From IMG/VR virus record IMGVR_UViG_3300006056_000014, positions 1-37,314 of that record: a stretch of DNA of 37,314 nucleotides, one strand, 5' to 3'. A program made the position numbers and the translations under genes. Below the pieces are notes generated by a model. The model had not been told where the DNA came from. It was given only the letters and a program-made list of their open reading frames with translations, and made no database searches. Positions 1 to 37,314 of this stretch are shown here, in pieces. This stretch comes from a virus. Every line of letters begins with the position of its first letter. Position 1 is the stretch's first letter.

Positions 1-80
1 ACCGCGCTGGAAATGATCGAACTGCAAAAACAGTCCGCCGCCCGGGCTGTCCTGCCTTTCGTTGTCGGCTGGGAAGGTGT
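1..80. repeat. Terminal direct repeat copy 1, identical to 37235-37314 (overlap of a circular or permuted assembly)
   Basis: The 80 nt string accgcgctggaaatgatcgaac...ggctgggaaggtgt occurs at both ends. It lies inside one ORF that reads through the junction. Confidence 0.95.
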
Positions 81-4380: not shown

Positions 4381-4673
4381 ACAAGACCAATTTCGAACAC
4401 GCGCTCTACGCGCTGGCGATGCAGGTCGCTGTGGCACTCGTCGGCTTCGGCTGGGTTGCTGGGGCCTTCCTCGGCGCTGGGTTTTTCATCGGCCGCGAAC
4501 TGGCGCAGGCGGAGTACCGCTGGATCGAGCAGTTCGGCGGCGGTCGCCGTGCCAACCTGCCGTGGTGGGGCTGCTTCGACCTTCGTGTCTGGCAGCACCT
4601 GGACGCATGGCTTGACGTTCTGTGTCCGGTGGTAGCAGTGACAGCGCTCGCCTGCGCGATGGGGAGGTTCTAA
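4377..4673 (+). CDS. Small membrane protein (hypothetical)
   Basis: ATG at 4377 overlaps the upstream stop (ATGA). MNKTNFEHALYALAMQVAVALVGFGWVAGAFLGAGFFIG... contains hydrophobic helices. Confidence 0.5.
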   Translation: MNKTNFEHALYALAMQVAVALVGFGWVAGAFLGAGFFIGRELAQAEYRWIEQFGGGRRANLPWWGCFDLRVWQHLDAWLDVLCPVVAVTALACAMGRF

Positions 4674-4676
4674 TCC

Positions 4677-5186
4677 GTGCCTGATTCCACTCTCTCGCAA
4701 GCTCTCAAGGAAGCCTACGCAGCCGCGCCGTCGGACGTCATCGTCTATCACACGCTGGAGATCAACCATCCAGCATTCAACCAGCCGATCTACGTGGTGC
4801 GCGATACCTCTGACCTCAACGCCAATCTGGAAAACGGCGATCCGGTGACCTTCATTCGCTTCGCATTCCGCCTAGTTAAGCCGGAAGTGTCGCCGACCGG
4901 TGTACCGCAGATGACCGTCGAGATCGATAACGTCAGCCGCGACATCCTGGCCAACATCCAACTGGCGATGCAGTCGACGTCCAAGATCACGATGACCTAC
5001 CGCGAGTACTTGTCGACCGACCTCTCCGGCCCGCAGAACGATCCTCCGATGGAGATGGTGCTTTCCAGCATCAAGGCTGATGTGTTCAAGGTGTCGGCGA
5101 CTGCGTCGTTCGGCGATGACAACAACAAGCGATTCCCGAACGAGGAATACACGGCCGATCGCTTCCCTATGCTGGTGGTGGAATGA
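4677..5186 (+). CDS. Minor tail protein, gpL-position (DUF1833-like)
   Basis: 169 aa with a GTG start. It sits between the gpM-like and NlpC/P60 genes. The sequence style (VIVYHTLEINHPAF..., EIDNVSRDI) is typical of DUF1833/tail L-like proteins. Confidence 0.55.
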   Translation: MPDSTLSQALKEAYAAAPSDVIVYHTLEINHPAFNQPIYVVRDTSDLNANLENGDPVTFIRFAFRLVKPEVSPTGVPQMTVEIDNVSRDILANIQLAMQSTSKITMTYREYLSTDLSGPQNDPPMEMVLSSIKADVFKVSATASFGDDNNKRFPNEEYTADRFPMLVVE

Positions 5187-5584
5187 TGCATTGGGCTTTT
5201 GAATATCTCGGTCGCCCCTGGATCGCCAAGGTCCATGAGTGCGGACACTTCTTCGTCGACGTCCAGCGCGAGCGCTTCGGCGTTGTGTCGCAGGTGATCG
5301 ATGCCGACTCGCTGTCTGTGCTGTCCTGCGTGCGGGCGCTGTCTGGCCATCACCCCGAACTGCTCAACTGGGTCGAGGTCGAGGTTCCGGAAGAGGGTGA
5401 TGCCGTGCAGATGAGCCACTCCAAGCACCCGCACCATATCGGTGTCTGGGTGGACGTGGATGGCGGCGGCGTCCTGCATTGCGTGGAAGGCCCGGGCGTG
5501 GTGTTCAGCACCCGCAAATCCTTGAAAGCGCACGGCTGGAACATCGTTTCGATCAAGCGCCACCGGAGCCGTGCCCATGGCTGA
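5183..5584 (+). CDS. NlpC/P60-family tail protein (gpK-like)
   Basis: 133 aa with a Cys/His/His arrangement (HECGHFF, HHIGVWV, VLHCVEG), in the gpK position. Confidence 0.65.
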   Translation: MMHWAFEYLGRPWIAKVHECGHFFVDVQRERFGVVSQVIDADSLSVLSCVRALSGHHPELLNWVEVEVPEEGDAVQMSHSKHPHHIGVWVDVDGGGVLHCVEGPGVVFSTRKSLKAHGWNIVSIKRHRSRAHG

Positions 5585-8198
5585 TCGCGTCTCTGCCTTC
5601 TCGGCCCACTGCGTCACGATTCGCGACCCGTTCCATCCGCTGCGCCATCGTGAGGTGGTGCGGCTGGACGGCCCTGGCCCAATCTCGGCATTGGCGCCGA
5701 CGACGACTCAGCCGTTCATCATCATGCGCAACGGGCAGGCCCTACTGCGCAAAGACTGGAATCAGACGGTCAGCGACGGCGACCTGTTGGCGGTAGTGCT
5801 GCTCCCGCAGGGCGGTCGCGGTGGCTCTGACGTGCTGCGTATTGTGCTGATGGTGGTTATTGCGGTTTTTGCCTATCAGGTTGCCCCATGGGTTGGTGGG
5901 CAATTTGGTATTACGTCGGCAGGGGGGATTGCTGCAATCCAGGGTGGTATCGGGATTCTTGGTTCTGCGCTCGTCAATGCCATATTGCCCCCGCAGGCCG
6001 CGGCTAATAGCGGATCTGGCAACAACAAGGCGGCCTCTCCAACGTACAACCTGGCCGCGCAGGGAAATCAAGCCCGTATCGGTGCGGCGATCCCTATCCA
6101 GTACGGCCGGCTTCGTTCTTATCCGGACTTCGCCGCGGCTCCCTACGTCGAATACCAAGGCAACGAGCAGTACCTGTACCAGCTGCTGTGTATTGGCATT
6201 GGCGAATATGCCATCGAGCAGATCCTGATCGAAGATACCGATATCGGCAACTTCGAGGAAGTTCAGTACGAGATCGTTGGGCCGAACGAGACTCTTGATC
6301 TGTTTCCCGCCGCTGTCGTCACTGCTGGCGAGGTCGCTGGCCAGGACATGGTCTATGACACGGCGGTCGGGCCGTTCATCAGCAACAACGCCGGAACCAC
6401 GGCCACCAAGCTGGCGCTCGATATCGTTCTTCCCCGCGGCCTGTACCACCTCAACAATTCTGGCGCCCTGCTTGTACGGAGTATCACCTTCACAGCCGAG
6501 GCGCGGCAGGTCGATGACAACGGTACGCCGATCGGCAGCTGGATTACCCTCGGTGAGGAAACCATCGAGGCTGCCACCTCAACGCCGCAGCGCCTGTCCT
6601 ACAACTACCAAGTCACCGCTGGTCGCTATGAAGTCAAGGTGACGCGGACCAGTGAAAAGGATGAGGACACGGCCACTGCCAATGACATCGTCTGGGCTGG
6701 TCTGCGTGCCTATCTCATCAGCGATTCGACATTCGGCAACGTGACGCTGCTGGCGGTTCGCATCAGAGCGACGAACAATCTGTCGCAGCAATCATCCCGC
6801 AAGATCAATGTCATCGCCACGCGCAAGCTGCACTACTGGAACGGTTATGCGTGGGCTGGCCCGGTGGCGACCCGTTCTATTGCCTGGGCGCTGGCCGATG
6901 CCTGCAAGACGGTGGGTATTCCGGATAACCGGATGGATCTCGACGGCCTTCTGGCACTGGAAGCGACGTGGGCGGCTCGTGGCGATACCTTCAACGCCCG
7001 ATTCGACAATACCAGCACCTTCTGGGATGCCTTGACCAAGATCGCCTTGGCAGGTCGGGCCAAGCCGTTCAAGCAAGCCGGCATCGTGCATTTCCGTCGC
7101 GACGAGGCCGTTTCCCTGCCGGTGGCCATGTACTCGATGCGCAACATCATTCGCGGCTCGTTCTCGATCGAGTTCCTGACGCCGACCGATGAGACGGCCG
7201 ACGCGGTCGAAGTGACCTACTTCGACGAGACGACGTGGAAATTCCGCACCCTGCTGTGCAAGCTGCCGGATTCCACTGCCGAGCGACCGGCAAAGATCGA
7301 GTACTTCGGTGTGACCAACCGTCAGCAGGTCTATGAGTACGGCATCTACATGGCCGCGGCCAATCGCTATCGCCGGATGCCGATCTCCCTGCAGACCGAG
7401 ATGGAAGGTTTTATTCCGTCGTTTGGCGATCTGGTGGCGATCTCGCACGACATGCCGCAATGGGGCCAGGGGGCTGATGTTGTCGATTGGGACGAAGACA
7501 CGCTAACCATGACATTGAGCGAGCCGCTGGTTTTTATCGGCACCGGCAACCACTACGCCGGCCTTCCTCGCCGGGACGGGTCGGTATCAGGGCCGTACGT
7601 GGTCCGGTCGGGTGCTGCCGAAGATCAGATCGTATTCACTGTGCCACCTGATTTCACGCCATATACCGGTCAGGATGAGGTGCGCACGCAGGTCATCTTC
7701 GGTCCCGGTGAGGCCTGGTATCAACCGGCCCGGGTGCTGGCGATCCGCCCGAAGGATGAATACACGGTCGAGCTGGTCTGCATCAACGAAGACCCGTCGG
7801 TGCACACCGCCGAACTTGGGATGCTTGCCCCGGCCATCAACCATTCGCAACTGCCAGCAACCCCGAAGGCGCCGGAGGTGTCTGGGCTGATCGCCCGATC
7901 GGCACCGGGTCAGCCAGACAAGATGGTCATCAGCTGGCGCCCGTCGCCAGGCGCAGAGCGCTATCTGGTCGAGCAATCGGCAGACGGTCTCGTCTGGACA
8001 CGCGTTGGCGACACGACAGCCAACAACTACACCGGTCAGGCGCTGTATGGCGCCCAGACCAAAGTGCGCGTGGCGGCCATTGGGGCGCTGCGTGGATCCT
8101 GGGCAAGCATCAATTACGCCCTTGAATCCGATTACATGTGGAACGCCAATGCGGCAACGCCGATGTGGTCTTCCGATAGCAATCCGATGTGGGGTTAA
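5577..8198 (+). CDS. Tail tip/host specificity protein; gpI-like N-terminus fused to a gpJ-like body with a C-terminal FN3 domain
   Basis: The N-terminal ~190 aa mirror lambda gpI: a ubiquitin-like part, a Gly-rich hydrophobic stretch, and the ...NLAAQGNQARIGAAIPIQYGRLR motif. The central region resembles gpJ. An FN3-like segment is PEVSGLIARSAPGQPDKMVISWRPSPGAERYLVEQS... Confidence 0.8.
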   Translation: MADRVSAFSAHCVTIRDPFHPLRHREVVRLDGPGPISALAPTTTQPFIIMRNGQALLRKDWNQTVSDGDLLAVVLLPQGGRGGSDVLRIVLMVVIAVFAYQVAPWVGGQFGITSAGGIAAIQGGIGILGSALVNAILPPQAAANSGSGNNKAASPTYNLAAQGNQARIGAAIPIQYGRLRSYPDFAAAPYVEYQGNEQYLYQLLCIGIGEYAIEQILIEDTDIGNFEEVQYEIVGPNETLDLFPAAVVTAGEVAGQDMVYDTAVGPFISNNAGTTATKLALDIVLPRGLYHLNNSGALLVRSITFTAEARQVDDNGTPIGSWITLGEETIEAATSTPQRLSYNYQVTAGRYEVKVTRTSEKDEDTATANDIVWAGLRAYLISDSTFGNVTLLAVRIRATNNLSQQSSRKINVIATRKLHYWNGYAWAGPVATRSIAWALADACKTVGIPDNRMDLDGLLALEATWAARGDTFNARFDNTSTFWDALTKIALAGRAKPFKQAGIVHFRRDEAVSLPVAMYSMRNIIRGSFSIEFLTPTDETADAVEVTYFDETTWKFRTLLCKLPDSTAERPAKIEYFGVTNRQQVYEYGIYMAAANRYRRMPISLQTEMEGFIPSFGDLVAISHDMPQWGQGADVVDWDEDTLTMTLSEPLVFIGTGNHYAGLPRRDGSVSGPYVVRSGAAEDQIVFTVPPDFTPYTGQDEVRTQVIFGPGEAWYQPARVLAIRPKDEYTVELVCINEDPSVHTAELGMLAPAINHSQLPATPKAPEVSGLIARSAPGQPDKMVISWRPSPGAERYLVEQSADGLVWTRVGDTTANNYTGQALYGAQTKVRVAAIGALRGSWASINYALESDYMWNANAATPMWSSDSNPMWG

Positions 8199-8200
8199 CC

Positions 8201-9424
8201 ATGAATCTATCACCATCCTCGTCTGCCACTTCTCCGACCGCTACCGAAGGCGACGTCAAAAACTTTCTGACCAACGTCCGCGACTACATCGCTACGTTGC
8301 TTGGTGCTGATACATCCAATAAATCGGCTGTTCTCACCGCCCTGACGGCGCCGCTCAATAGCCGGATCGACAAAACAGCAGCCTATACGGTCGTCGCGGC
8401 CGATCGCGGCAAGGTGATCAACTGCACCGGAACCGGTGGCTGGGATTTGACCATCACGGCTGCGGCAACGCTGGGCGATGGCTTTGTATTCGCGGCGGTC
8501 AACAGGACGACCGGGGCGATCACGATCAATCCGAACCTGAGCGAGCAGGTGGCAGGCGTCACTACCTACGCCATGCAGCCTGGCGAGTCGGTGATTGTGT
8601 ATTGCACCGGCTCGGCATTCGAGTTGTTCGGCAATTCGCCGAAGCGCTCCGATATACAGACATTTACGTCCAGCGGCACCTGGATCAAGCCCCCTGCAGC
8701 GCCGGCAAACTCCCTGGTGATTGTCGAGACGTGGGGTGGCGGTGGTAGTGGCGGCAAGGGGTCGTCGGATAAGTCTGGCGGTGGTGGCGGTGGTGGCGAG
8801 TACGCCTGCGACATTTACCCGCTTTCTGCGTTCAGCACCACAGAGACCGTCACGATCGGCGCCGGTGGTACGGCCGTTACGGCGGCTTCAACCAACGGTA
8901 ATCCTGGTGGGAATACGACAGTCGGTGCGCTGCCCATTGCCTACGGCGGCGGCGGTGGTGCGAAGTGGGGAGGCAACGCGCCGGCTTCGCCCGGTGGCGG
9001 CGGTGGCGGTGGCGGCGGCGATGTGTCTGGCGGCACCAACGGCCTCGGCGCTAACGGCGGCATGCGGGCAACGGCCCCGGGTGGCCTTGGCGAACTTGGC
9101 GGGATAAGAAATGCCACTACGCCAGCCCCTGGGATTAATGCTGGCGGTGGCGGCGGTGGCGGTGGCGGCGGTACATCAAGTGGTGGCGCCGACGGCGGCA
9201 ACACGATCAAGGGCGGCGCCGGTGGTGGCGGTGGCGGCCGATCTACAGGCGACCCTGCCGGCGACGGCGGCATTTCAAATTACGGCGGCAATGGCGGCGC
9301 CGGGTCTGTCGATTCCGCGTCGGCAACGGCCGGTTCTTTCCCGGGTGGTGGCGGCGGCGGCTCAGAAAACGGCACCAGCGGTGCCGGTGGAAACGGCAAG
9401 GCAGTCATCACTGTGATTTGGTAA
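8201..9424 (+). CDS. Glycine-rich domain protein (putative tail fibre/receptor-binding accessory)
   Basis: ATG at 8201 follows the gpJ stop. FTSSGTWIKPPAAPANSLVIVETWGGGGSGG is followed by multiple poly-Gly blocks, the typical phage Gly-rich domain architecture. Confidence 0.7.
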   Translation: MNLSPSSSATSPTATEGDVKNFLTNVRDYIATLLGADTSNKSAVLTALTAPLNSRIDKTAAYTVVAADRGKVINCTGTGGWDLTITAAATLGDGFVFAAVNRTTGAITINPNLSEQVAGVTTYAMQPGESVIVYCTGSAFELFGNSPKRSDIQTFTSSGTWIKPPAAPANSLVIVETWGGGGSGGKGSSDKSGGGGGGGEYACDIYPLSAFSTTETVTIGAGGTAVTAASTNGNPGGNTTVGALPIAYGGGGGAKWGGNAPASPGGGGGGGGGDVSGGTNGLGANGGMRATAPGGLGELGGIRNATTPAPGINAGGGGGGGGGGTSSGGADGGNTIKGGAGGGGGGRSTGDPAGDGGISNYGGNGGAGSVDSASATAGSFPGGGGGGSENGTSGAGGNGKAVITVIW

Positions 9425-9434
9425 GGGGGTACAA

Positions 9435-9821
9435 ATGAGAGCAGCGCAAATTGCAAACGGGGTCGTGGTCAACGTGGTCATCGTTGATGCGATCGATGAC
9501 TTGCCCGATCTGGTCATGATCTCTGATGAATACTGGATCGGCGACCTGTACGCGGACGGAGTGTTTTCCAAGCCTGTCGAATCCATCCAAGTGCCGACGT
9601 CGGTGACCCGTCGGCAGATGAAGCTGGCCCTGCTGCAGCAGGATCTGCTCAGTACGGTCGAAGCCGCCGTCGAGGCATCGAACGACATGGCGCTCAAGAT
9701 CAACTGGTTCGATGCGCTGGATTTTCAGCGCGACAACCCGTTTGTGATTCAGATGGCTGCGCTGCTTGGTAAGAGTGACGACGATCTCGATCAGATATTC
9801 GTGCTCGCCGCATCTCTCTGA
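9435..9821 (+). CDS. Hypothetical protein (tail-fibre-adjacent)
   Basis: 128 aa ORF with an AGGGGG RBS and a clean acidic composition. Confidence 0.55.
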   Translation: MRAAQIANGVVVNVVIVDAIDDLPDLVMISDEYWIGDLYADGVFSKPVESIQVPTSVTRRQMKLALLQQDLLSTVEAAVEASNDMALKINWFDALDFQRDNPFVIQMAALLGKSDDDLDQIFVLAASL

Positions 9822-9848
9822 CCAAAAAAACCAAGAAAGGAAAACAGC

Positions 9849-10205
9849 ATGCCGGAACCGCACTCAACAACCATCGGCATCGCGGTCGGTGCCGGCATCG
9901 GTCTGACCGGGACGGTCATGGGCGCCCAGGTCGATGCGCTGATCATCGGCCTGGTCGCGGCGATCCTGATCAGCTTCTGGCTGCCGACGATTGATGACCG
10001 GAAGAAGGCCGCCGCCTCGGTGGCCATGTCCTCGTTGCTGGCTGGCTATGGTTCTCCGGTCGCCGCCGCCTGGCTGGCGGCCGATCAGGCGTCGTTCAGC
10101 AACGGAAGCCCGTTGCGCCTGCTGCTGGCCATCGCCATCGGCTCGGCCACGCCAACGCTGGTGCCGGTAATCCTGGGCTGGGCAAAACGCAAGGTGGAGG
10201 CCTGA
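9849..10205 (+). CDS. Holin-like membrane protein
   Basis: 118 aa with 3-4 hydrophobic helices, an AAGGAAA RBS, located just upstream of the endolysin. Confidence 0.55.
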   Translation: MPEPHSTTIGIAVGAGIGLTGTVMGAQVDALIIGLVAAILISFWLPTIDDRKKAAASVAMSSLLAGYGSPVAAAWLAADQASFSNGSPLRLLLAIAIGSATPTLVPVILGWAKRKVEA

Positions 10206-10207
10206 TC

Positions 10208-10450
10208 ATGCTTGAGACGCTTCTCTGTGGCTTGGCCACGCTGGTTGTGTTCTGGAAGCTGATCGGCGTCGTTGGGTCGATCAACATTCATGCTTTCGAT
10301 GGTCATCCGTGGCAGTTCATCGGCCTGGCTTGTCATTGGGCGCTGGTCTGTGCCGGATCGCTGGCCACCTTGCTCGGCCTGTCGATCGGCGGGGCAATGC
10401 TGGTGGTTGGCATGGCCATGATGATTCTGTCTGATCGGAGGTCGAGATGA
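10208..10450 (+). CDS. Second small membrane protein (holin/antiholin candidate)
   Basis: 80 aa with 2-3 TM segments. Its stop overlaps the endolysin start. Confidence 0.5.
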   Translation: MLETLLCGLATLVVFWKLIGVVGSINIHAFDGHPWQFIGLACHWALVCAGSLATLLGLSIGGAMLVVGMAMMILSDRRSR

Positions 10451-11731: not shown

Positions 11732-11855
11732 CCTGGCGGAGTGGAAGGCGGCGCATCCGCCGGCACTGCGTTGCTGGAATGCGGCGGTCAGATGCTGGTG
11801 GAACTGGGCGTCGTTGGCCTGGTATCCGTGGCAAAAAGTCTTCTACAAAAAATAA
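11703..11855 (+). CDS. Small Trp-rich hypothetical protein
   Basis: GGAGG RBS then ATG 11703: MSSTDAQIIDLAEWKAAHPPALRCWNAAVRCWWNWASLAWYPWQKVFYKK. Confidence 0.35.
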   Translation: MSSTDAQIIDLAEWKAAHPPALRCWNAAVRCWWNWASLAWYPWQKVFYKK

Positions 11856-11893
11856 ACGGCCGCGCAACCACGCGGATTTCAAGCGCTATTATT

Positions 11894-11919
11894 TCGGCTA
11901 TTCGGATTTTCGTGTGGAA
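11894..11919. repeat. Left arm of a 26-bp imperfect inverted repeat that brackets the methyltransferase-like gene
   Basis: tcggctattcggattttcgtgtggaa versus the reverse complement of 12572-12597, tcggctattcggaaaatcgtgtggaa (23/26 identical). Confidence 0.8.
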
Positions 11920-11936
11920 TGGAAAATTCCATGTTG

Positions 11937-12566
11937 CTACGCACAATAGATTCCTCCGTTGCTGCGTCGAGCCAGTCGCAGCAGTTCGTCACGAAATTCC
12001 AAGGGCGTGGCGTTCGCCTCTCTCTTGCCGAGGGTCGGCTTATTCGCAGCCTTCCCTCGTTGGTCTGGAAAACCAATCTGGTGCGTTCCTTCCTGTCGCT
12101 CCCACCGCAGTTCAAAAGGCGGGGTCGTGCCGCAGTAGTAGAGCCATGTCGCTTTGTTCGCCCGGTGTCCGTATGCGCTCTGCCAAACCTCGCACACCCA
12201 ACCGCGATCGATGGTCATCTGCCAGCCAATGGCTTCCGGAGCGGCCAGTCCGTGCGCGTTCCATGCCTTGGTCTTCGCCGGGTGTTCGAGAACCCCGCCA
12301 AAACGCCGCACGCTATCTAGGGCGGCAGCAAAGCATCCGCCGTCGTTCCCAGGCTTGTTGTGGTCGCCGCCCCATCTGGTGTAGTTCACTACCGCCATTG
12401 CTCCCCACAACTGGCACGGCGGATGCGCAACAACTGGCATTGGCCCTGCATAAAGTCTCGCGTCTCTATGTTCCGGCCATGCATCAACATCAGGCAGCCC
12501 GGAATAGCACCCATCTGCCTGCACAAACAATGCCGCCAGAACATGGTTATTTGTGCGTTGCATCAT
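11937..12566 (-). CDS. C5 cytosine DNA methyltransferase-like protein (small phage type, no clear motif I)
   Basis: VVAHPPCQLWG (PCQ, motif IV-like), GGVLEHPAKT (ENV-like) and a C-terminal ATPLEFRDELLRLA. No FxGxG SAM loop is recognisable. Confidence 0.45.
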   Translation of the reverse strand: MMQRTNNHVLAALFVQADGCYSGLPDVDAWPEHRDARLYAGPMPVVAHPPCQLWGAMAVVNYTRWGGDHNKPGNDGGCFAAALDSVRRFGGVLEHPAKTKAWNAHGLAAPEAIGWQMTIDRGWVCEVWQSAYGHRANKATWLYYCGTTPPFELRWERQEGTHQIGFPDQRGKAANKPTLGKREANATPLEFRDELLRLARRSNGGIYCA

Positions 12567-13107
12567 TCAATTTCCACACGATTTTCCGAATAGCCGATTT
12601 TCCGGAGAGCCGTTTTTTCAACGTCTCAAGCGCAGATTTGTAGCTTTCCTTGGCGGCTTTCTTGGTTGGCTTCCAGTCGCCGGCGACTTCCGGGTAGATG
12701 GACCACGATACGGACAGGTCACGGCGGAACATTCGGTACTCGCGGGTGCTTCCATATCCGCGCGTCTCGTAAATCGGCTTGTTGATACCCAGGAACTGAG
12801 CGAACGAGTCGAAGCAGTCGCCAATGCACAGGTATTCCTCAAACTTGGTGCGCTTCGGGGCCGGCGGCAAATGTTCGATGGCGTAGGCCCGGCCGGCTTC
12901 GCTGCAGACAAAGGTGATATCGCCATCGGCACAGAAGGCCGGAGTCGGAACGCGCTTCATCAAGCCCGCAGACTCCAGCGCTTCGAGGTCGGCCTGGCTA
13001 TGGTGGCCGGGGCCGGCCAGGTAGTAGTTGCGATACGACTCGCGGTGATCCGGGCGCAGGCCCAGCGTGTGATGAAGAACGTGCAGCATGCTGTCGGTGA
13101 TGGTCAC
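12547..13107 (-). CDS. Hypothetical protein
   Basis: 186 aa with good coding composition, translationally coupled to both neighbours. Confidence 0.6.
   Translation of the reverse strand: MTITDSMLHVLHHTLGLRPDHRESYRNYYLAGPGHHSQADLEALESAGLMKRVPTPAFCADGDITFVCSEAGRAYAIEHLPPAPKRTKFEEYLCIGDCFDSFAQFLGINKPIYETRGYGSTREYRMFRRDLSVSWSIYPEVAGDWKPTKKAAKESYKSALETLKKRLSGKSAIRKIVWKLNDATHK
12572..12597. repeat. Right arm of the 26-bp inverted repeat (partner of 11894-11919)
   Basis: Same alignment as for the 11894-11919 arm. It lies inside the 3' end of the 186-aa ORF, 6 nt upstream of the methyltransferase-like ATG. Confidence 0.8.
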
Positions 13108-13427
13108 GGATCCACCTCTTCACCAAGGCTGCCAGCCGGGAAGAAAACGAGGGCCGGGACAGCGGTTTCAGTTTTGGCCGATTTTTCGGCCTGACCGTAG
13201 CATTCATCCTCGGCATCCCGATCCGGGAAGCCTTCCAGCGGCAGGTACATGACCATGTTTTCGGACAGGCAGGCACGGTGCATGGGCGTGATGTGCGGCC
13301 TGTCATGGCGCAGGGTGACGTGCCGGGCGCAGTTGTCGGCTTGAAAGCAGGTGTCGCCTTCATAGAGGCCGTGGGCGAGGCAGCGCTGATAGTCAGCAGG
13401 AAGCGGCAGTGGCATTGGTTTTTGCAT
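13104..13427 (-). CDS. Cys/His-rich hypothetical protein
   Basis: The internal ATG at 13427 gives MQKPMPLPLPADYQRCLAHGLYEGDTCFQADNCARH... (107 aa). The upstream part of the listed 190-aa ORF is the out-of-frame shadow of the RT gene. Confidence 0.5.
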   Translation of the reverse strand: MQKPMPLPLPADYQRCLAHGLYEGDTCFQADNCARHVTLRHDRPHITPMHRACLSENMVMYLPLEGFPDRDAEDECYGQAEKSAKTETAVPALVFFPAGSLGEEVDP

Positions 13428-14544
13428 GGCTTTTCCGGTAGGTCTTGGAGAGGTCTGATTTGATGCTGTGGCCGCGCTGGCGCAGGGTGTTGGCGAGCGT
13501 GGCGCGGTCGTGATGGCTGTGTGATGCCTGACGCAGCAGGCCGAAGTAGCTGTTGGCGGTTTCGAACAGATCCTCGGCCGGCAGGCTGCGGGTACGGATG
13601 ATGGCGTCGTTGAAGGTGCGGCGGCGCAGGGTGCGGCGATGGGGCTTGATGACCTGGCCGACGAAGTCGATGCCACGGTCGATGGGCTGCAGGATGGTTT
13701 TCTTGGGGTTGATACGGGCGGCCAGCACCTTTTCGAGCATGTCCTCGATATGGTCCTTGGCGTCGTTTAGCCATTGCGGCGATTGGTGAAGCAGTACGAA
13801 GTCGTCGACGTAGCGGATGTAGTGCCGGCAGTGCAGTTCGTGCTTGACGAATTGGTCGAGCACGTCGAGATAGACGTTGGCGAAGAACTGGCTGCTTAGG
13901 TTTCCGATCGGAAGGCCCATGTGGGCTGGCTGGTTGGTCAGTCGCTTGTGCGGCGGGACCAGGGCGAGTTGTTGTGGATCGCCGTGCAGTTCGTAGTTTT
14001 GCCGCGGGTCGTGGAATAGCACGGCCTCGGTGAGCTGCAGCCACCAGTGCTCGTGGATGTGGCGGGCGAGCAGGCGCTGCAGGATGCGCTTGTCGATACT
14101 GACGAAGAAGTTGGCGAGATCGAGCTTCAGGTAGAAGGCTGGCTTGGTCCAGTTCTGGGTGATGCTGCGCACCTTGGCTTCGAGCCGTTCGGCGGCGTAG
14201 AGCGTGCCGCGACCTGGAATGCAGGCGCAGCTGTCGGCGATGAAGCGGGCGTAGAAGCGCGGGGCGATGTGGTTGTGCAGCAGGTGGTGCACGATGCGGT
14301 CGCGGAACTGGCCGGCCCAGACTTCGCGGGCCTTGGGGCGGGTGATGACGAAACAGATGGAGCGGCCGGGCTGGTAGCTGCCGTCTTCGAGTTCGTCGTG
14401 AAGGTCGCGCAGGTTGTTTTCCAGGTTGGCTTCGAAGGCCAGCGCACTGGCGCTGTTGCGCTTTGTGCGTCGGCAATCGAAGTAGGCCTGGGTCAGTTCG
14501 GTGAAGGTGAAGTCAGCGGGGGCTTTCCAATCTGCGGACGGCAC
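13393..14544 (-). CDS. DGR reverse transcriptase (start uncertain: GTG 14544 or 14550, or upstream ATGs up to 14793)
   Basis: LPIGNLSSQFFANVYL, YIRYVDDFVLL (YxDD box) and a GIDFVGQVI thumb region. The gene is adjacent to the TR and Avd. Confidence 0.92.
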   Translation of the reverse strand: MPSADWKAPADFTFTELTQAYFDCRRTKRNSASALAFEANLENNLRDLHDELEDGSYQPGRSICFVITRPKAREVWAGQFRDRIVHHLLHNHIAPRFYARFIADSCACIPGRGTLYAAERLEAKVRSITQNWTKPAFYLKLDLANFFVSIDKRILQRLLARHIHEHWWLQLTEAVLFHDPRQNYELHGDPQQLALVPPHKRLTNQPAHMGLPIGNLSSQFFANVYLDVLDQFVKHELHCRHYIRYVDDFVLLHQSPQWLNDAKDHIEDMLEKVLAARINPKKTILQPIDRGIDFVGQVIKPHRRTLRRRTFNDAIIRTRSLPAEDLFETANSYFGLLRQASHSHHDRATLANTLRQRGHSIKSDLSKTYRKSHAKTNATAASC

Positions 14545-14625
14545 GAGCACGGAGCTCGTTGTTCTTGTGGTTGTTGTTCTGGTTGCCGTTGTTGAAGTTC
14601 TGATACCAAGCCCAGCCGGACTCGG
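14528..14625 (-). repeat. DGR template repeat (TR), 98 nt
   Basis: On the minus strand it encodes ESGWAWYQNFNNGNQNNNHKNNELRARAVRRL with nine AAC codons. It is the adenine-bearing master copy of the three VRs. Confidence 0.93.
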
Positions 14626-14767
14626 CCCCATCGTGCTTTCTACGTCGCCCTGCCGACTGTTCAGCGGGGAAACTGCGCCGGACCTTTCCTGCGTGCGGCA
14701 GGAGGTCTCCGTGGTGCGCATGTCGGTGGCCTCGTGAGCCAGCGGCACGACCAGATTGAATGTGCGC

Positions 14768-15142
14768 TCAGTCATGGCGGCCTTGGCCTCCATGAAGCGG
14801 GCGCGACGCGGATTTGCGCCACCCGTTGGCCTGCTTCCCGATGCTGGTGGTAAGTTCGATGGCCTGGGCGTAGGCTGCCTTGCTGATCAGGCGCTTGTCC
14901 ATGGACAGGCGCAGCATCAGTTCGGCGACCTGCAGGCGCTCGACCAGTTCCAGAAGATGGGGTGCCTTGTCCTGGGCGACGTTGGCCCGGAAGATCAGCA
15001 CCGTGATTTCGATGCACTCGGTGCTGATCTTGTCGCCGATTGATCGCTTGAAGTCTCGCTGCATGTTCTTGACGAGACTGGTCACGACATCGAGCAGGTC
15101 GTAGGCGACCTTGTAGATGGGAAGATTGGTATGGGTGGCCAT
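14768..15142 (-). CDS. avd: Accessory variability determinant (Avd), four-helix-bundle protein
   Basis: 124 aa with LPIYKVAYDLLDVV...IGKQANGWRK, typical of the Avd/23S-IVS protein family. The gene order is target-avd-TR-RT. Confidence 0.88.
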   Translation of the reverse strand: MATHTNLPIYKVAYDLLDVVTSLVKNMQRDFKRSIGDKISTECIEITVLIFRANVAQDKAPHLLELVERLQVAELMLRLSMDKRLISKAAYAQAIELTTSIGKQANGWRKSASRPLHGGQGRHD

Positions 15143-15160
15143 GCTGACTAAATGACTGAA

Positions 15161-15640
15161 TTACTCAATGATCAATCTGCGGACGGCACGAGCACGGAGA
15201 TCGTAGTCCTCGTGGTAGCGGTCCTGGTGGCCGAGGACGAAGTCCTGACACCAAGCCCAGCCGGACTCGGATTCGTGGGCTTCGCAGGACCAGTACCAGC
15301 GGACTTCGAATTGATCCTTGAGGTTGGCGTAGAGCAGGGATTGCTCGCGGCGGGTGGGCAGGCTTGCAACGTATTCGCCACCTTGTTTGGCGGCCCATTC
15401 CATGGCTTTGTCCCAGGTGATGTCGTCCGCCTGGCTGGGGAGCAGCACCAGGTGATGGCTCGGCTCGCCATCCTTGCCGACGATCAGTCCGGCGTAGTGC
15501 TCGCCGGGGAGTAGATGGATGGTGACTTCCGGGAAGTAGAACTCGGCTGCAGGCTGGTTGGCCTGGGCCTCGAAGGTGGCGATCTTGGCGGCTAGTGCAT
15601 CGGCATCGGACTTGATCGATTCAAGCGTTATGGGGGTCAT
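15161..15640 (-). CDS. DGR variable protein 1 (DUF1566/C-type-lectin-like) with a 45-aa N-terminal extension
   Basis: 159 aa. The C-terminus ...WYWSCEAHESESGWAWCQDFVLGHQDRYHEDYDLRARAVRRLIIE is encoded by VR1. Confidence 0.9.
   Translation of the reverse strand: MTPITLESIKSDADALAAKIATFEAQANQPAAEFYFPEVTIHLLPGEHYAGLIVGKDGEPSHHLVLLPSQADDITWDKAMEWAAKQGGEYVASLPTRREQSLLYANLKDQFEVRWYWSCEAHESESGWAWCQDFVLGHQDRYHEDYDLRARAVRRLIIE
15173..15270 (-). repeat. DGR variable repeat VR1
   Basis: Ungapped 98-nt match to the TR. There are 14 differences at TR adenines and one G-to-T change (plus-strand position 15200). Confidence 0.95.
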
Positions 15641-15664
15641 AGCGTCCTCGAAATGACTGAATGA

Positions 15665-16024
15665 TTAAATAGGCAATCTGCGGACGGCACGAGCACGGAG
15701 CTCGTCGTCCTTGAGGGTGTCGTGCTGGAGGCCGATGCCGAAGCTCTGATACCAAGCCCAGCCGGACTCGGTGTGGTGAGTCTCATTGCTCCAGTACCAG
15801 TCTTTTTGAAACTGGTCGCGGTGGTTGGCCCACAGCATGGCTTGCTCGACGCGGGTCGGCAGATCGCCGCCGATGCTCTTTGCCCAGTCCATCTTGGCTT
15901 GCCAGGTGGCGGCGTCGTTGTCGCCGGGCAGCAGGATGACGTGATAGATGTCGCCTGCTGTGTCGCCGATGGCGCCGACGTAGATCTCGCCTTCGGCGAG
16001 CGGGGGGAGTTGAAGTTGTTGCAT
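15665..16024 (-). CDS. DGR variable protein 2 (single DUF1566-like domain)
   Basis: 119 aa. ...ATWQAKMDWAKSIGGDLPTRVEQAMLWAN...TESGWAWYQSFGIGLQHDTLKDDELRARAVRRLPI. Confidence 0.9.
   Translation of the reverse strand: MQQLQLPPLAEGEIYVGAIGDTAGDIYHVILLPGDNDAATWQAKMDWAKSIGGDLPTRVEQAMLWANHRDQFQKDWYWSNETHHTESGWAWYQSFGIGLQHDTLKDDELRARAVRRLPI
15674..15771 (-). repeat. DGR variable repeat VR2
   Basis: Ungapped 98-nt match to the TR, with 12 differences, all at TR adenines. Confidence 0.95.
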
Positions 16025-16038
16025 GGGGGCTCCTGTGG

Positions 16039-16629
16039 TTAAAGTTTGTTCCAGTGCTGCGTGGTGCGTACTTCGTGAATGACCGTGGCGAAGGCGACGG
16101 CAACCTGGTCGTTGTCGACCAGCGATTTGACGGCTGCGTGTTTCATGGCGTCGGCCTCGTTCTCAAAAATCAGGTAGCTGTCGGCGACGATGTAGCGTTG
16201 GCGGATCGGTTGGTCAGAGGCCGGCTCGGCGGGGGTTTCGTCCCGCTTTGCCGCCTCAATGACTGTTGCCTTGCCCTCGGCCCGAGGTGTTGCTTGCCCG
16301 ACGGGCTTAGCCGATGCTCGGCTGCGGCTGTTATTGGCCTCACCTGCCGCTGGGGTCTCGCTGGGTTGCTTCTTTGGTTTGCTGGGTTCTTCCTGAACTT
16401 CAGGGCGCTTCGACTCTTCTTCGTGGTGGCGTCGACCTTTCGGCGTGATCTGCCAAGCCAGTTCGTGGCGGCTGCTGTCCTCGACCTGCTTGATCTGGCC
16501 GGCGTTCTTCATCGCATTGCACGTCCAGCGCAGCTTGTTGCGCGGGATCTTGGTAGCGCGCTCAAGGTCGTCGTAGGTGCTGGTGCCAAGCTTGACCAGC
16601 GCTTCCAGGATTGATTGAACTTGAGTCAT
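16039..16629 (-). CDS. Winged-helix-like DNA-binding protein with a disordered linker and a C-terminal domain
   Basis: 196 aa. The N-terminus ILEALVKLGTSTYDDLERATKIPRNKLRWTCNAMKNAGQIKQV looks like a wHTH, followed by a P/E/K/A-rich linker. Confidence 0.55.
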   Translation of the reverse strand: MTQVQSILEALVKLGTSTYDDLERATKIPRNKLRWTCNAMKNAGQIKQVEDSSRHELAWQITPKGRRHHEEESKRPEVQEEPSKPKKQPSETPAAGEANNSRSRASAKPVGQATPRAEGKATVIEAAKRDETPAEPASDQPIRQRYIVADSYLIFENEADAMKHAAVKSLVDNDQVAVAFATVIHEVRTTQHWNKL

Positions 16630-16636
16630 GCTTGCC

Positions 16637-16909
16637 TCAGTAAGAGCGGGGAGCTGGGTCAGGTAGGCGGCGGTCGATCATGTCGGCCGAGCGGGTATCG
16701 AGCCATTCGTTCCGGCGCCTGTTGGCGTCGTCGCGGGCTGCGTGGGCGGCGAGCAGCTGGTGAACGGTGGCGGCGATCTCGGCGTTGAGCGTCTTCTCGG
16801 CGTTGATCAGATCGGAGAGCATTTGCTCAAGGTCCTCGATGTGCTGCTCGTGCGACTTGACCTGCAGGCCAAACAAGTTGGCGTAGATCCAGTTGATCAG
16901 GCGGCGCAT
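16637..16909 (-). CDS. Hypothetical coiled-coil protein
   Basis: GGAGG RBS 7 nt before ATG 16909: MRRLINWIYANLFGLQVKSHEQHIEDLEQ... (90 aa). Confidence 0.55.
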   Translation of the reverse strand: MRRLINWIYANLFGLQVKSHEQHIEDLEQMLSDLINAEKTLNAEIAATVHQLLAAHAARDDANRRRNEWLDTRSADMIDRRLPDPAPRSY

Positions 16910-17097
16910 GGGATGTCCTCCAGTTGGGCGGACGTCGGGCTCTTGACCTTGACGGCAATCTTGGTCCAGCCGGCGGGAACAATTGGGCTGACAACGGTTC
17001 GTTGGCCGTTGCTGATGATGTGCATGCCGCGGGCCTTGGCGGCCTGGGCCACTTCGTCGAGCAGGGCGTCTTCGCTGAAGATAAGGGCGGTGATCAT
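16897..17097 (-). CDS. Hypothetical protein
   Basis: 66 aa, overlaps both neighbours (translational coupling). Confidence 0.45.
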   Translation of the reverse strand: MITALIFSEDALLDEVAQAAKARGMHIISNGQRTVVSPIVPAGWTKIAVKVKSPTSAQLEDIPCAA

Positions 17098-17471
17098 GCT
17101 GCCTCCGCAATTGCCATCGGCTCTTGGTACATATTGATGGGAACAGTGAAGTCGAGAAGATGGATGGAAGAGGTGACCGAGTTGCCGATGTCGCCGGGAT
17201 CTTCGGTACGTATGGACAGACCGAGCGCATGAATGGCAACCCGTGCCCGAGCGTGGTTTGAAAGGATGAGGACGCGCACATTGACTTCGCCGCTTTGGTG
17301 GCTAGTTACGCAAGCAGCGGCACTGGTGTAGTACTCATCGGCGACCTTGTTGTTGATTTCCTCGGCCAAAGCTTCGGCTTCTGCGATCAGGCCAGCGGCG
17401 GCAATAAGTCCGACCCGGCGATCTGCAAATTCCTTGTCAAGTCTCGCCAGTTCTTGTTCCAGCATCCCCAT
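17094..17471 (-). CDS. Hypothetical protein
   Basis: 125 aa with a strong GAGGAGG RBS. Confidence 0.6.
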   Translation of the reverse strand: MGMLEQELARLDKEFADRRVGLIAAAGLIAEAEALAEEINNKVADEYYTSAAACVTSHQSGEVNVRVLILSNHARARVAIHALGLSIRTEDPGDIGNSVTSSIHLLDFTVPINMYQEPMAIAEAA

Positions 17472-17481
17472 GATTGCCTCC

Positions 17482-17655
17482 TCAGATCAGTGCCGGCTGA
17501 ACGGGCGCCGACTTTCCCTTGTTGCCAGCCTTCGCGCCGCAGGTGATGGCGATGCGAATGGCCGGGATGCTCATTGCCTTCTCGAAGCTCATGCCCGTGA
17601 ACGACAGGCCGGTGCGACGGTAGAAGGCGCGCTGCTGTTGTTCGGTGTGGGTCAT
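17482..17655 (-). CDS. Small hypothetical protein (57 aa, below the ORF-track cutoff)
   Basis: GAGG RBS then ATG 17655: MTHTEQQQRAFYRRTGLSFTGMSFEKAMSIPAIRIAITCGAKAGNKGKSAPVQPALI, stop at 17482-17484. Confidence 0.45.
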   Translation of the reverse strand: MTHTEQQQRAFYRRTGLSFTGMSFEKAMSIPAIRIAITCGAKAGNKGKSAPVQPALI

Positions 17656-17679
17656 GTCAGCCTCTAAATTGATGAATGA

Positions 17680-18024
17680 CTAAATGACCAATCTGCGGAC
17701 GGCACGAGCACGGAGCTCGTTGAGCTTGCGGTCGTCGTACTGGTCGCCGTAGCGGAAGTTCTGATACCAAGCCCAGCCGGACTCGGATTGGTTCGACCAG
17801 TAGGCGCTCGGCTTGAATTCATCCTTGGCGGTGGCAAACATCAGCGCCAGTTCGACGCGGGTGGGCAGATCGCCGCCTTGTTCCTTGGCCCAGGCCATTG
17901 CGTCGTTCCAGTTGGCCTCGATGTCGCCAGGCAGAAGGATGATGTGGGTGGTAGTGCCGTCGGCAGAGACGATGCCGCCGATATAGCGTTCGCCTTCGTT
18001 GAGTTCTGGGGTGGTGGTGATCAT
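17680..18024 (-). CDS. DGR variable protein 3 (single DUF1566-like domain)
   Basis: GGAG RBS before ATG 18024: MITTTPELNEGERYIGG...SESGWAWYQNFRYGDQYDDRKLNELRARAVRRLVI (114 aa). It is a paralogue of proteins 1 and 2. Confidence 0.9.
   Translation of the reverse strand: MITTTPELNEGERYIGGIVSADGTTTHIILLPGDIEANWNDAMAWAKEQGGDLPTRVELALMFATAKDEFKPSAYWSNQSESGWAWYQNFRYGDQYDDRKLNELRARAVRRLVI
17689..17786 (-). repeat. DGR variable repeat VR3 (remote, 1.9 kb from VR2)
   Basis: Ungapped 98-nt match to the TR, with 10 differences, all at TR adenines. Confidence 0.95.
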
Positions 18025-18044
18025 GGTTGGCTCCGTTAAATATC

Positions 18045-18091
18045 TGTAACTATGGTTACACATAGAAAAGCAAAAAGCAACCATGGTTACT
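18045..18091. promoter_or_regulatory. OL-like pair of repressor operator palindromes upstream of the leftward DGR operon
   Basis: TGTAAC-TATG-GTTACA (18045-18060, perfect) and AGCAAC-CATG-GTTACT (18076-18091). The motif is the same as in the cI/cro intergenic region. Confidence 0.6.
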
Positions 18092-18143
18092 GTTGGAGCG
18101 AAAAAAAACCGCCGGGTGGCGGTCGTTCTCGGGTTGATATTGG

Positions 18144-18623
18144 CTATCTAATTGCCCACTTGAGGTCGTACATCTCTTTTGTGCAATGCTTGTTCCAGTC
18201 AGAGGGCTTTTGGCTACTTCTGTTTTTGAGAACGACAAGAAATTCTCGGTTAATTCCACCAAACCCATTTTTGGCCCGGTATTCAACACAGGCAACCGTT
18301 GAGTCATCATTGATGTGCATGGTTTCAATGATCAGAGAATCTGGGTCTCGAAGTGTCTTTTTGAGGTTTTCAGCAACTGCCCTGGCCAATCCAAACCTGA
18401 GAGTTTCGCTGGCATCCTTTGCTTTTTCGGCGGCTGTTTTTTCTGCAGGCCGCTGGGTAGTTTGGTTCCCGACGATAGATATTGCGATGACTAGCAGCAT
18501 GAATCCAACGAGAACAATTTTTGTTGCGCTGGGTGGGCGCTTGACTTTGGCGCCGCACTTTGGGCAGGTTGTTGCTTCGCTGCTTACCTGATTTGTGCAT
18601 TCATGGCATGTTATGAGGCTCAT
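18144..18623 (-). CDS. Zinc-ribbon, single-pass membrane protein downstream of cI (possible exclusion/immunity function)
   Basis: MSLITCHECTNQVSSEATTCPKCGAKV, then TM IVLVGFMLLVIAISIV, then a ~95-aa extracytoplasmic domain. Confidence 0.6.
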   Translation of the reverse strand: MSLITCHECTNQVSSEATTCPKCGAKVKRPPSATKIVLVGFMLLVIAISIVGNQTTQRPAEKTAAEKAKDASETLRFGLARAVAENLKKTLRDPDSLIIETMHINDDSTVACVEYRAKNGFGGINREFLVVLKNRSSQKPSDWNKHCTKEMYDLKWAIR

Positions 18624-18684
18624 AAATAATGTCCTTATCGTATGCCGGTATTCTAACCCCAGACCAAGCGCAGTCGAGAGGGGG

Positions 18685-19146
18685 TTAGTCTTTTTGCTCG
18701 CTGCGCTTCTCGAAAGCTGCAAGTGCTCTGTCAGCCAACCAGATCATCTGTTCCCGATCCTTTGAATCTGCAACATGGTAGGCCTCGATAAGTTTTCTGA
18801 TATTGGGCTCCGGTTCGCGTGCTGACAATTCAGTCACTACTGGTGTGGCTGAATACGCCACCCTTGGTTCGCCATTGAATGGTGTGTTGTCGATATTTGG
18901 CTGGGTGTTTGCTTGGTGGCATTCGTCAGCGACAACGATCATCCCGCGTAATAGCAGGCCGACATCGACGTTGTACTTGTCGCAGAAGGCCAGAAGGTTT
19001 CCAAGCTTCATGTTTGCCGTATCGCCGGTTTCCCATTTCAGGTAACCCTGTCGAGAAACACCAACCTTGCCGGCGGCCTTTGCGGGGCTATCTCCAGCAT
19101 CGGTTCGAATTTTTTCGATCAGCGAGGCAAGGCTGCTTTTTTCCAC
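18685..19146 (-). CDS. cI: CI-like repressor (XRE-family HTH), probable GTG start
   Basis: HTH segment SPAKAAGKVGVSRQGYLKWETGDTANMKLGNLLAFCDKYNVDVGLLLRG. ORF codons upstream of GTG 19146 merely translate the operator repeats. Confidence 0.75.
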   Translation of the reverse strand: MEKSSLASLIEKIRTDAGDSPAKAAGKVGVSRQGYLKWETGDTANMKLGNLLAFCDKYNVDVGLLLRGMIVVADECHQANTQPNIDNTPFNGEPRVAYSATPVVTELSAREPEPNIRKLIEAYHVADSKDREQMIWLADRALAAFEKRSEQKD

Positions 19147-19209
19147 GTAAGTATGGTTACATACTGGCACGTAACTATGGTTTGCATGTACCGTGCAACT
19201 ATGGTTACA
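19146..19209. promoter_or_regulatory. OR-like tripartite operator (three 16-bp sites spaced exactly 24 bp apart)
   Basis: CGTAAG-TATG-GTTACA (19146-19161), CGTAAC-TATG-GTTTGC (19170-19185) and TGCAAC-TATG-GTTACA (19194-19209), located between the divergent cI and cro genes. Confidence 0.7.
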
Positions 19210-19218: not shown

Positions 19219-19416
19219 ATGGATCATTCTGACTCTCCAATCATCGATCGTTTGGGCGGTAATTCCGCCTTGGCAAAGATGTTCTCTATTTCTTCTCAGG
19301 CCGTTTCAAAGTGGCGAAAAGAGGGGATTCCTGAGGCTCGCCGTATGTATCTGAAGTTGGCGCATCCGAGTGCGTTCGATGAGCTTGAGTCCAGCCAGCG
19401 CAAAGAGGCCGCCTGA
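19219..19416 (+). CDS. cro: Cro/YdaS-like HTH regulator
   Basis: MDHSDSPIIDRLGGNSALAKMFSISSQAVSKWRKEGIPEARRMYL... (65 aa), divergent from cI. Confidence 0.7.
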   Translation: MDHSDSPIIDRLGGNSALAKMFSISSQAVSKWRKEGIPEARRMYLKLAHPSAFDELESSQRKEAA

Positions 19417-37153: not shown

Positions 37154-37314
37154 ATGAGCCTTGCTGAAAAACTCCGCAAGGCTCGCGAAGTGAAGGTTGA
37201 AGCCGCCGGCTTCACCTTCACCATTCGCCGGCCAACCGCGCTGGAAATGATCGAACTGCAAAAACAGTCCGCCGCCCGGGCTGTCCTGCCTTTCGTTGTC
37301 GGCTGGGAAGGTGT
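37154..37314 (+). CDS. Tail assembly chaperone (gpG-like), 5' part; continues at nt 81 of the window
   Basis: ATG 37154 gives MSLAEKLRKAREVKVEAAGFTFTIRRPTALEMIELQKQ... The last 80 nt duplicate nt 1-80. Confidence 0.8.
   Translation, partial: MSLAEKLRKAREVKVEAAGFTFTIRRPTALEMIELQKQSAARAVLPFVVGWEG
37235..37314. repeat. Terminal direct repeat copy 2 (identical to 1-80)
   Basis: Exact 80-nt identity with the window start. Confidence 0.95.

Follow-up and report, generated by a model that had tools for sequence, protein, structure and literature searches.

Retroelement-diversified lectin-like proteins in the early leftward unit of a lambdoid phage are very unlikely to be fixed tail fibers and may act inside the infected cell

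Phage diversity-generating retroelements (DGRs) are usually read as tropism switches that diversify tail proteins, but the complete DGR described here, encoded on the minus strand at ~11.9–18.1 kb of a 37,314-nt viral DNA (IMG/VR record IMGVR_UViG_3300006056_000014, positions 1 to 37,314; this whole stretch is hereafter the window), is directed only at minimal soluble lectin domains. It comprises an accessory protein (Avd), the TR (template repeat), and the RT (reverse transcriptase), with variable repeats (VRs) in three target proteins, T1, T2, and T3, of which T3 is the first gene of a repressor-controlled leftward unit. A fixed tail-fiber role is very unlikely for these targets, and we put at about even the chances that they are early-expressed, non-structural, soluble binders acting inside the infected cell in phage–host conflict, where we infer a role in host takeover or anti-defense. 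They would be made right after infection or induction while the repressor is absent, neither in the lysogen nor together with virion proteins, and would work within the infected cell through a diversifiable face, most likely by binding variable host or competitor factors in that conflict, e.g., defense proteins. The variant gene would be expressed from the incoming genome, so that the link between genotype and phenotype would be kept and selection from a library would be well suited; that is, the phage population would carry a pre-made library, from which the variants that succeed in a given host would be selected. Cultured members of the same cassette family are Magia (on B. cenocepacia), vB_PL1, vB_E192a, and Shewanella phage vB_Sb_QDWS (QDWS).

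The window contains exactly four copies of a 98-nt repeat, one being the TR (14528–14625) and three being VRs, namely VR1 (15173–15270) in T1 (15161–15640; 159 aa), VR2 (15674–15771) in T2 (15665–16024; 119 aa), and VR3 (17689–17786) in T3 (17680–18024; 114 aa), all on the minus strand, which confirms the three VR-bearing open reading frames (ORFs) that an earlier note on this DNA had picked out at these lengths. The invariant ends of the repeat each matched four times in the window against 0.00 expected, and 36 of the 37 mismatches between TR and VRs (14/15, 12/12, and 10/10) fall at TR adenines. The TR contains 28 adenines and nine AAC codons and, read in the VR frame, gives ESGWAWYQNFNNGNQNNNHKNNELRARAVRRL, permitting ~1e16 protein variants per target, and each VR stops 2–4 codons ahead of the stop codon of its target ORF. 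Avd (14768–15142, minus strand) matched PF22296 (bAvd) at 46.3 bits against a cutoff of 40, and NCBIfam DivGenRetAVD at an E value of 7.8e-13 with a score under that model's cutoff; the RT (13393–14631, minus strand) matched RVT_1 at E 4.4e-14. The RT ORF, which is open back to 14793, contains the TR, and its nearest in-frame ATG lies at 14631, 5 nt ahead of the TR, and the stretch from the TR to the conserved N-terminus of the RT has no start codon in frame; therefore, the TR is probably translated as the first ~33 codons of the RT, in a frame other than that of the VRs. The element is a canonical DGR, in which the RT, together with Avd, copies the TR into adenine-mutagenized cDNA that replaces the 98-nt VR at the 3′ ends of the three paralogous genes. 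A search with both invariant repeat ends found no VR copy in the tail genes of the window, and the receptor-binding candidates among them are hence not diversified, as had been claimed.

Near-identical phages differ in this region only within VRs, which shows the DGR to be active in nature. In other samples, contigs of essentially the same phage (L084–L087) are >99.6% identical to the window, and between L085 and window positions 11819–17786 there are 23 differences, 10 in VR1, 13 in VR3, and 0 elsewhere in ~6 kb. Counted over all four contigs, TR-adenine positions account for 91 of the 98 VR differences, VR3 differing by 9–13 nt, mostly at such positions, while VR2 is identical in L084–L087 by construction, as an exact match to T2 served to retrieve these contigs. 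In an alignment of 78 T2 homologues of equal length, columns holding at least nine residue types coincide with AAC codons. Separately, L084 and L085 (39.8 kb; 5986–10360) carry an extra tandem 2-kb block relative to window positions 15665–18024, consisting of a target gene and the genes for 57-, 125-, 66-, 90-, and 196-aa products and giving four targets, which is consistent with unequal recombination between conserved VR-flanking sequences or with an assembly artefact.

Directly 3′ of each VR stands an AT-rich box of three 8-nt units (TCATTYAG-like), at 15148–15172 for VR1, 15649–15673 for VR2, and 17664–17688 for VR3 (all minus strand), which overlaps the final codons and the stop codon of the target; one example reads GTCATTTAG TCATTCAT CAATTTAG. 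Over the family, the consensus reads '.c.ATTtA.t.aTT.a...ATTT', in which ATT recurs every 8 nt, and comparison of 365 VR with 120 TR copies found the sequence 3′ of the VRs (the AT-rich 8-mer triplet) to be unlike that 3′ of the TRs. The asymmetry is of the initiation-of-mutagenic-homing (IMH) type, and the triplet may be a cis element, specific to VRs, through which targets are recognized. No GC-rich hairpin of the BPP-1 type was found 3′ of the VRs, where DNA folding was no better than that of shuffled sequences (z −0.6 to 0.2).

The diversified proteins themselves are little more than a binding domain. Pfam Lcl_C/DUF1566 (PF07603) scores were 19.3, 20.6, and 25.4 bits, below the gathering cutoff of 34.9 for all three targets, though many of their close homologues carry a precomputed PF07603 match and the NCBI name "DUF1566 domain-containing protein". 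The assignment of the targets to a shared Lcl_C/DUF1566 C-type-lectin (CLec) fold is thus a structural one: an AlphaFold2 model of T1 (76 sequences; predicted local distance difference test, pLDDT, 88) consists of an N-terminal helix at residues 6–27 followed by a lectin-like domain, and its best match in the PDB is the C-terminal domain of Legionella Lcl (8q4e_A; E 1.7e-5, TM-scores 0.52/0.62, 25% identity), with C-type lectin-like domains (CTLDs) next, whereas a sequence search of T1 against PDB chains gave no significant match. T2 and T3 align with T1 from about residue 33 on and are therefore the bare lectin domain, so that the description of each target as a single DUF1566/Lcl_C-like domain stands for T2 and T3 but not for T1, whose amphipathic helix, with hydrophobic residues at 6, 9, 13, 16, 20, and 23 (3–4 heptad spacing), looks like a coiled coil in the model. 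All three targets are acidic (pI 4.8–5.0), as are their N-termini. The earlier note's view that they lack a signal peptide, lipobox, or transmembrane segment held up: the maximum 19-residue Kyte–Doolittle hydropathy is ≤1.21 and no transmembrane segment was found in the targets, T2 and T3 have no cysteine, which makes a lipobox impossible (T1 has two, at residues 119 and 131), and a crude predictor found a signal-like or lipobox-like N-terminus in 0 of 240 close homologues. The only genuine lipoprotein signal among 150 family representatives belongs to P0260, a giant 3255-aa lipoprotein adhesin of cellular origin with at least six Lcl_C repeats.

Equally informative is where the targets lie. 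Between a cI-like helix-turn-helix (HTH) repressor (18685–19145, minus strand; HTH_31/HTH_3) and a divergent cro-like DNA-binding protein (19219–19416, plus strand; phrog_8008, phrog_409, with a P22_Cro Pfam match on the identical gene in sister contig L087) stands an OR-type operator cluster (19147–19208) of three GTAACCATAGTTAC-like palindromes at 24-bp spacing, and two copies of the same palindrome form OL-type operators at 18046–18090, 22–66 nt upstream of the T3 start; the palindrome gives 10 strand-matches in the window against 0.56 expected. Since the longer cI ORF, to 19227, crosses the operators, the gene probably starts at the GTG close to 19145. With the OL operators directly upstream of it, T3 opens a lambda-PL-like leftward unit that runs through T3, five small genes, T2, T1, Avd, TR-RT, and three genes without assigned function, and is closed by a terminator-like hairpin at 11860–11875 (minus strand), convergent with the lysis genes. 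T3 starts at an ATG at 18024 with a GGAG ribosome-binding site 8 nt upstream; a 134-aa alternative ORF was disfavored, as its start would fall within an operator. The PL-operon position proposed in the earlier note is accordingly upheld, as is the opposition in strand to the tail genes, the Q-like, terminase, portal, tail, and lysis genes all being on the plus strand; its statement that the targets lie >8 kb from the receptor-binding candidates at 2776–9424 is correct for T3, but T1 and T2 are only 5.7–6.2 kb from 9424.

This placement bears on two further explanations. Lysogen-expressed conversion or exclusion factors, made from a promoter inside the T2-T1-Avd-RT cassette and benefiting the lysogen, would agree with the many prophage morons near the integrase end and with the terminator annotated just upstream of the T2-like gene of Magia, which suggests a separate unit there; yet T3 stands directly behind OL, only 14 nt separate T2 from the preceding gene, a sigma-70 consensus scan found no internal promoter upstream of T2 or T1, and the targets have no export or membrane signal, unlike most exclusion proteins, all of which makes this explanation improbable. 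The idea that the targets act in a lysogen, which had been left open earlier, is unlikely for T3, sitting as it does behind the repressor operators. We also give little credence to lectins that are freed at lysis and act outside by masking receptors on debris or neighbors, binding matrix glycans, or blocking competing phages. The closest solved structure is that of an extracellular glycan-binding adhesin domain (8q4e), and lack of a signal peptide fits release by lysis, but a post-lysis function has no need of the immediate-early placement of T3, a diffusing product would presumably uncouple the variant gene from its benefit and make DGR selection inefficient, and there is no parallel diversification of the receptor-binding genes of the phage itself.

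Relatives also speak against a virion role. In a comparison of all window ORFs of ≥60 aa against Magia, vB_PL1, QDWS, and LPPA56, the RT proved to be 58–68% identical to theirs, Avd 50–75% identical to its relatives, and the targets 50–63% identical in Magia, vB_PL1, and QDWS and 27–35% in LPPA56. Apart from weak endolysin and cro matches in QDWS, only RT, Avd, and targets are common to the window and these four phages, with no common head or tail protein at E<1e-4; sheath and/or baseplate genes (myovirus-type tails) are present in Magia, vB_PL1, and QDWS, whereas the window encodes a J-type siphovirus. Docking onto a virion would call for a conserved partner, and these virions, with no protein in common at that threshold, offer none. 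The target-target-Avd-TR-RT cassette is thus portable, and it occupies the early-left, integrase-proximal arm of many betaproteobacterial temperate phages with unrelated virions.

A synteny survey of 157 related loci extends this picture. Both Avd and RT are present in 123 of the 157 loci, and in every one of these 123 a target lies ≤150 nt upstream of Avd and the targets (273/273) are on the RT strand. Loci hold 1–4 targets, most often two; the untruncated target ORFs (n = 344) have a median length of 152 aa, the longest being 339 aa. Where an integrase was detected, which was the case in 49 of the 123 loci, it lay 0.4–6.9 kb downstream of the RT each time. Prophages of B. dolosa and Dechloromonas have the order repressor, T2, T1, Avd, RT, integrase, while QDWS has repressor, a T3-like gene, RecT, exonuclease, T2, T1, Avd, RT, then a cytosine methylase, a host nuclease inhibitor, and integrase; the leftward operon of Magia starts with the T3-like gp57, followed by exonuclease, RecT, AAA, regulator genes, gp47, gp46, Avd, RT, xis, and int, and vB_PL1 has the same order as Magia. 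At the T2 position of some loci (L013, L016, L020, L024, L032, L040, and others) there is a 200–222-aa variant whose similarity is confined to the C-terminal lectin half, the additional ~90–100-aa N-terminal region having no Pfam match. QDWS (OK094664.1, L090) and "Hujiaoplasma phage zrk29-1" (OP650936.1) are both 47,902 bp with near-identical matches in the DGR region; their stated hosts are in different phyla, and at least one assignment looks doubtful.

The family is also large and consistently small in protein size. A 90%-clustered protein collection holds 1830 relatives of T2 and 1287 of T1, the best 120 of each being almost all 119 aa (T2) or ~157 aa (T1) and, where they have a name, called only "DUF1566 domain-containing protein", with Cupriavidus, Dechloromonas, Burkholderia, Paraburkholderia, and Sulfuritalea among the named hosts. 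In IMG/VR viral contigs, relatives turned up at 450 stretches, and in species-representative genomes at 103 stretches (77 loci kept), mostly of Betaproteobacteria, and a search of PLSDB plasmids with T1 gave no match and hence no sign of a non-phage carrier. A profile search of 1.84 billion representatives yielded 3611 clusters, 229 of them at E≤1e-30; of the best 150 representatives, 140 are <250 aa and only one is >400 aa, and no tail-fiber Pfam domain, and thus no homologue fused to a tail-fiber N-terminal domain, was found in the 10 longer or extended ones scanned. Within this set, P0345 (373 aa) has an SNF2/DEAD helicase-like N-terminus fused to the lectin domain, possibly through a gene-calling artefact; if real, the fusion would be a cytoplasmic context for the domain.

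These data also weigh on the idea that the targets are detachable or accessory receptor-binding adaptors, i.e., small lectins that bind the tail tip or fibers non-covalently and extend host range like Mtd of phage BPP-1. Characterized phage DGR targets of known function are all tail proteins (PMC5758913, PMC8144416), the Lcl_C/CLec fold ends long fiber-like phage proteins (phrog_4245, profile length 583; BFVD hits of 594–1417 aa), the T1 helix could serve oligomerization or docking, and the authors describing Magia proposed host-range alteration. Against these points, the target genes face away from the Q-dependent late operon on the other strand and follow repressor operators, T2 and T3 offer nothing beyond the lectin domain with which to dock, target identity of 50–63% persists across phages with different tail types and no detectable virion protein in common, and no tail-fiber fusion appeared in the scanned longer members. 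We consider such adaptors unlikely. For fixed fibers, the strand, the absence of a virion protein shared with relatives, and the lack of a fiber fusion in the longer members scanned all agree with the earlier note in setting that role aside.

As the cassette is the only thing common to otherwise unrelated phages and is compact and self-contained, it might alternatively be largely selfish cargo that spreads among phages and keeps its own targets without specific benefit to the phage. We find this hard to credit, given that >340 target ORFs are intact with 29 invariant non-VR columns, that phages carry 2–4 targets each, that the system takes up ~9% of a 37-kb genome, and that VR turnover in nature introduces no stop codons.

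For the proposed action of the targets in conflict inside the infected cell, context is offered by QDWS, where the cassette lies between RecT/exonuclease and the cytosine methylase and "host nuclease inhibitor", and by Magia, where it adjoins RecT and exonuclease. Several points weigh against this proposal. First, the PL hexamers were not recognized (the sigma-70 scan gave no PL site at 18025–18110), so the promoter is placed by operator position. Second, it may be Avd and RT, and not the targets, that call for the early position, and early proteins can persist and join virions. Third, the same fold is found at the tips of long phage tail-fiber-like proteins and in cell adhesins, its usual job being extracellular binding, and no neighbor in the window matches a known defense or anti-defense family. 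Finally, the T3 model (pLDDT 72.6) is confident in the N-terminal two thirds but of low confidence in the VR, and none of its PDB matches reaches significance (best E 0.26), though the top hits are all CTLDs.

A particular form that intracellular action could take is a DGR-made, "antibody-like" counter-defense library of intracellular binders, with each incoming genome expressing a variant of its own from the first early promoter, which we see as possible but rather unlikely. Rare variants would neutralize a host defense, sensor, or other restrictive protein and so open resistant strains, or, alternatively, the bound protein would be handed to a conserved partner through the invariant face; the cassette would be portable since its scaffold needs no virion partner. 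If the targets do act inside the cell, phages would use targeted hypermutation for intracellular conflict as well, mirroring the DGR-diversified sensors of bacteria, and the family would offer a natural, very small, cytoplasm-compatible binder scaffold with ~1e16 variants.

The first 80 nt of the window (1–80) are identical to the last (37235–37314), which marks it as the circularly closed genome, of ~37.2 kb, of a lambdoid siphovirus, with a textbook gene map in PHROGs and Pfam annotation. The immunity region runs cI-like repressor, operators, cro, and a cII-like gene, after which the plus strand, which carries every late gene of the window, continues with primase/helicase-like, Q-like, HNH, TerS, TerL, and portal genes, then the tape measure, a J-like central fiber (875 aa), a Gly-rich 411-aa fiber, and lysis genes. 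The phage is presumably temperate, and its host is probably a betaproteobacterium. No integrase, excisionase, RecT, or exonuclease was detectable in the window, including as homologues of the genes of related phages, despite the presence of the cI, cro, and cII-like genes. Directly downstream of cI, a zinc-ribbon protein (18144–18722, minus strand) lies in a GC dip (0.485 vs ~0.60) and is followed by an intrinsic-terminator-like hairpin with a T-run (18107–18124, minus strand) that closes the cI/zinc-ribbon unit just ahead of OL; the protein takes the place that rexAB has in lambda and may thus be an immunity-region moron expressed in the lysogen. Within the leftward unit, the five intervening genes (16039–17655, minus strand) encode 57, 125, 66, 90, and 196 aa, the last with an N-terminus like that of a winged-helix regulator, and the three distal genes (11937–13427, minus strand) encode ~107, 186, and 209 aa, matching families without known function (phrog_21796, phrog_12600); for the non-DGR genes of the unit, Pfam and PHROGs returned only unknown-function families and the winged-helix-like regulator, and PADLOC and NCBIfam scans of targets and neighbors returned nothing informative.

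Parts of this arrangement, which the earlier note could not match to the classical BPP-1 Mtd paradigm, have precedents. Short DUF1566 targets were described by Wu et al. 2018 (PMC5758913), in whose analysis about half of DUF1566-class targets are short and consist of that domain only, and multi-VR DGRs of Burkholderia, Ralstonia, and Collimonas were catalogued in DiGReF (2012). In Magia, gp47 and gp57 are annotated as "lectin fold domain protein, potential DGR target" and gp46, the T1 orthologue, as hypothetical, and the targets are pointed out in the genome announcement (PMC7883833) as "relatively short reading frames", with speculation about host range; publications on the isolated relatives vB_E192a, Cruim01, and Magia contain no virion proteomics and no DGR analysis beyond that remark. 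Benler et al. 2021 (PMC8008677) proposed that one DGR target of Quimbyvirus is non-structural and related to phage–host conflict. A literature search for a DGR-linked anti-defense role in proteobacterial phages found none, and in the searchable literature we could not find a portable cassette with only minimal stand-alone lectin targets, such a cassette under lambdoid early-left control, or its recurrence in hundreds of phages with unrelated virions.

Among the closest known systems, the Magia DGR (gp44 RT, gp45 Avd, gp46, gp47, and gp57; NC_070954), with those of vB_PL1, vB_E192a, QDWS, and LPPA56, belongs to the same cassette family in the same order and likewise has a remote third target close to the start of the leftward operon. 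The backbones of these phages are entirely different from that of the window; Magia, vB_PL1, and QDWS differ in carrying int, xis, RecT, and exonuclease along with their myovirus-type tails, whereas the window is a siphovirus without detectable integrase or recombinase. The classical BPP-1 system (mtd-avd-TR-brt) has the same mechanism and component order (target with 3′ VR, Avd, TR, RT), adenine-specific mutagenesis, AAC-rich TR codons, and a variable domain of C-type-lectin fold. Mtd is a 381-aa tail-fiber-tip protein with N-terminal domains. The window phage, in contrast, has three targets of 114–159 aa without Mtd-like N-terminal domains (T2 and T3 are the lectin domain only, and T1 adds one 22-residue helix), located outside the late operon in a repressor-controlled unit on the strand opposite the tail genes; its VRs are followed by the AT-rich 3 × 8-nt box and not a GC-rich hairpin, and its TR lies within the RT ORF. 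Category "d"/CLec2 targets (DUF1566, DUF823, Fib_succ_major; Legionella LdtA; PMC5758913) are alike in having the VR in a DUF1566-type lectin fold, but LdtA is a surface lipoprotein and Lcl a secreted adhesin, whereas the window targets have no export signal and lie in a phage early operon. Among cellular DGRs, two reports describe intracellular CLec targets, namely the STAND-type "antigen sensors" found in multicellular bacteria (PMC10907252) and regulatory proteins of cyanobacteria (PMC7517822); such targets are likewise diversified lectin-fold domains, presumably cytoplasmic and engaged in conflict or signaling, but they are large multidomain proteins with the lectin sensor fused to effectors, while in the window the domain stands alone and on the phage side. 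Quimbyvirus, a gut Bacteroidetes phage, is similar in that its second target also lies distal to the structural module and on the opposite strand; it belongs to another phage lineage and host phylum and also diversifies a structural protein near the tail fibers, whereas the window has no structural target and its targets are minimal stand-alone domains, duplicated 2–4 times and placed under lambdoid operator control.

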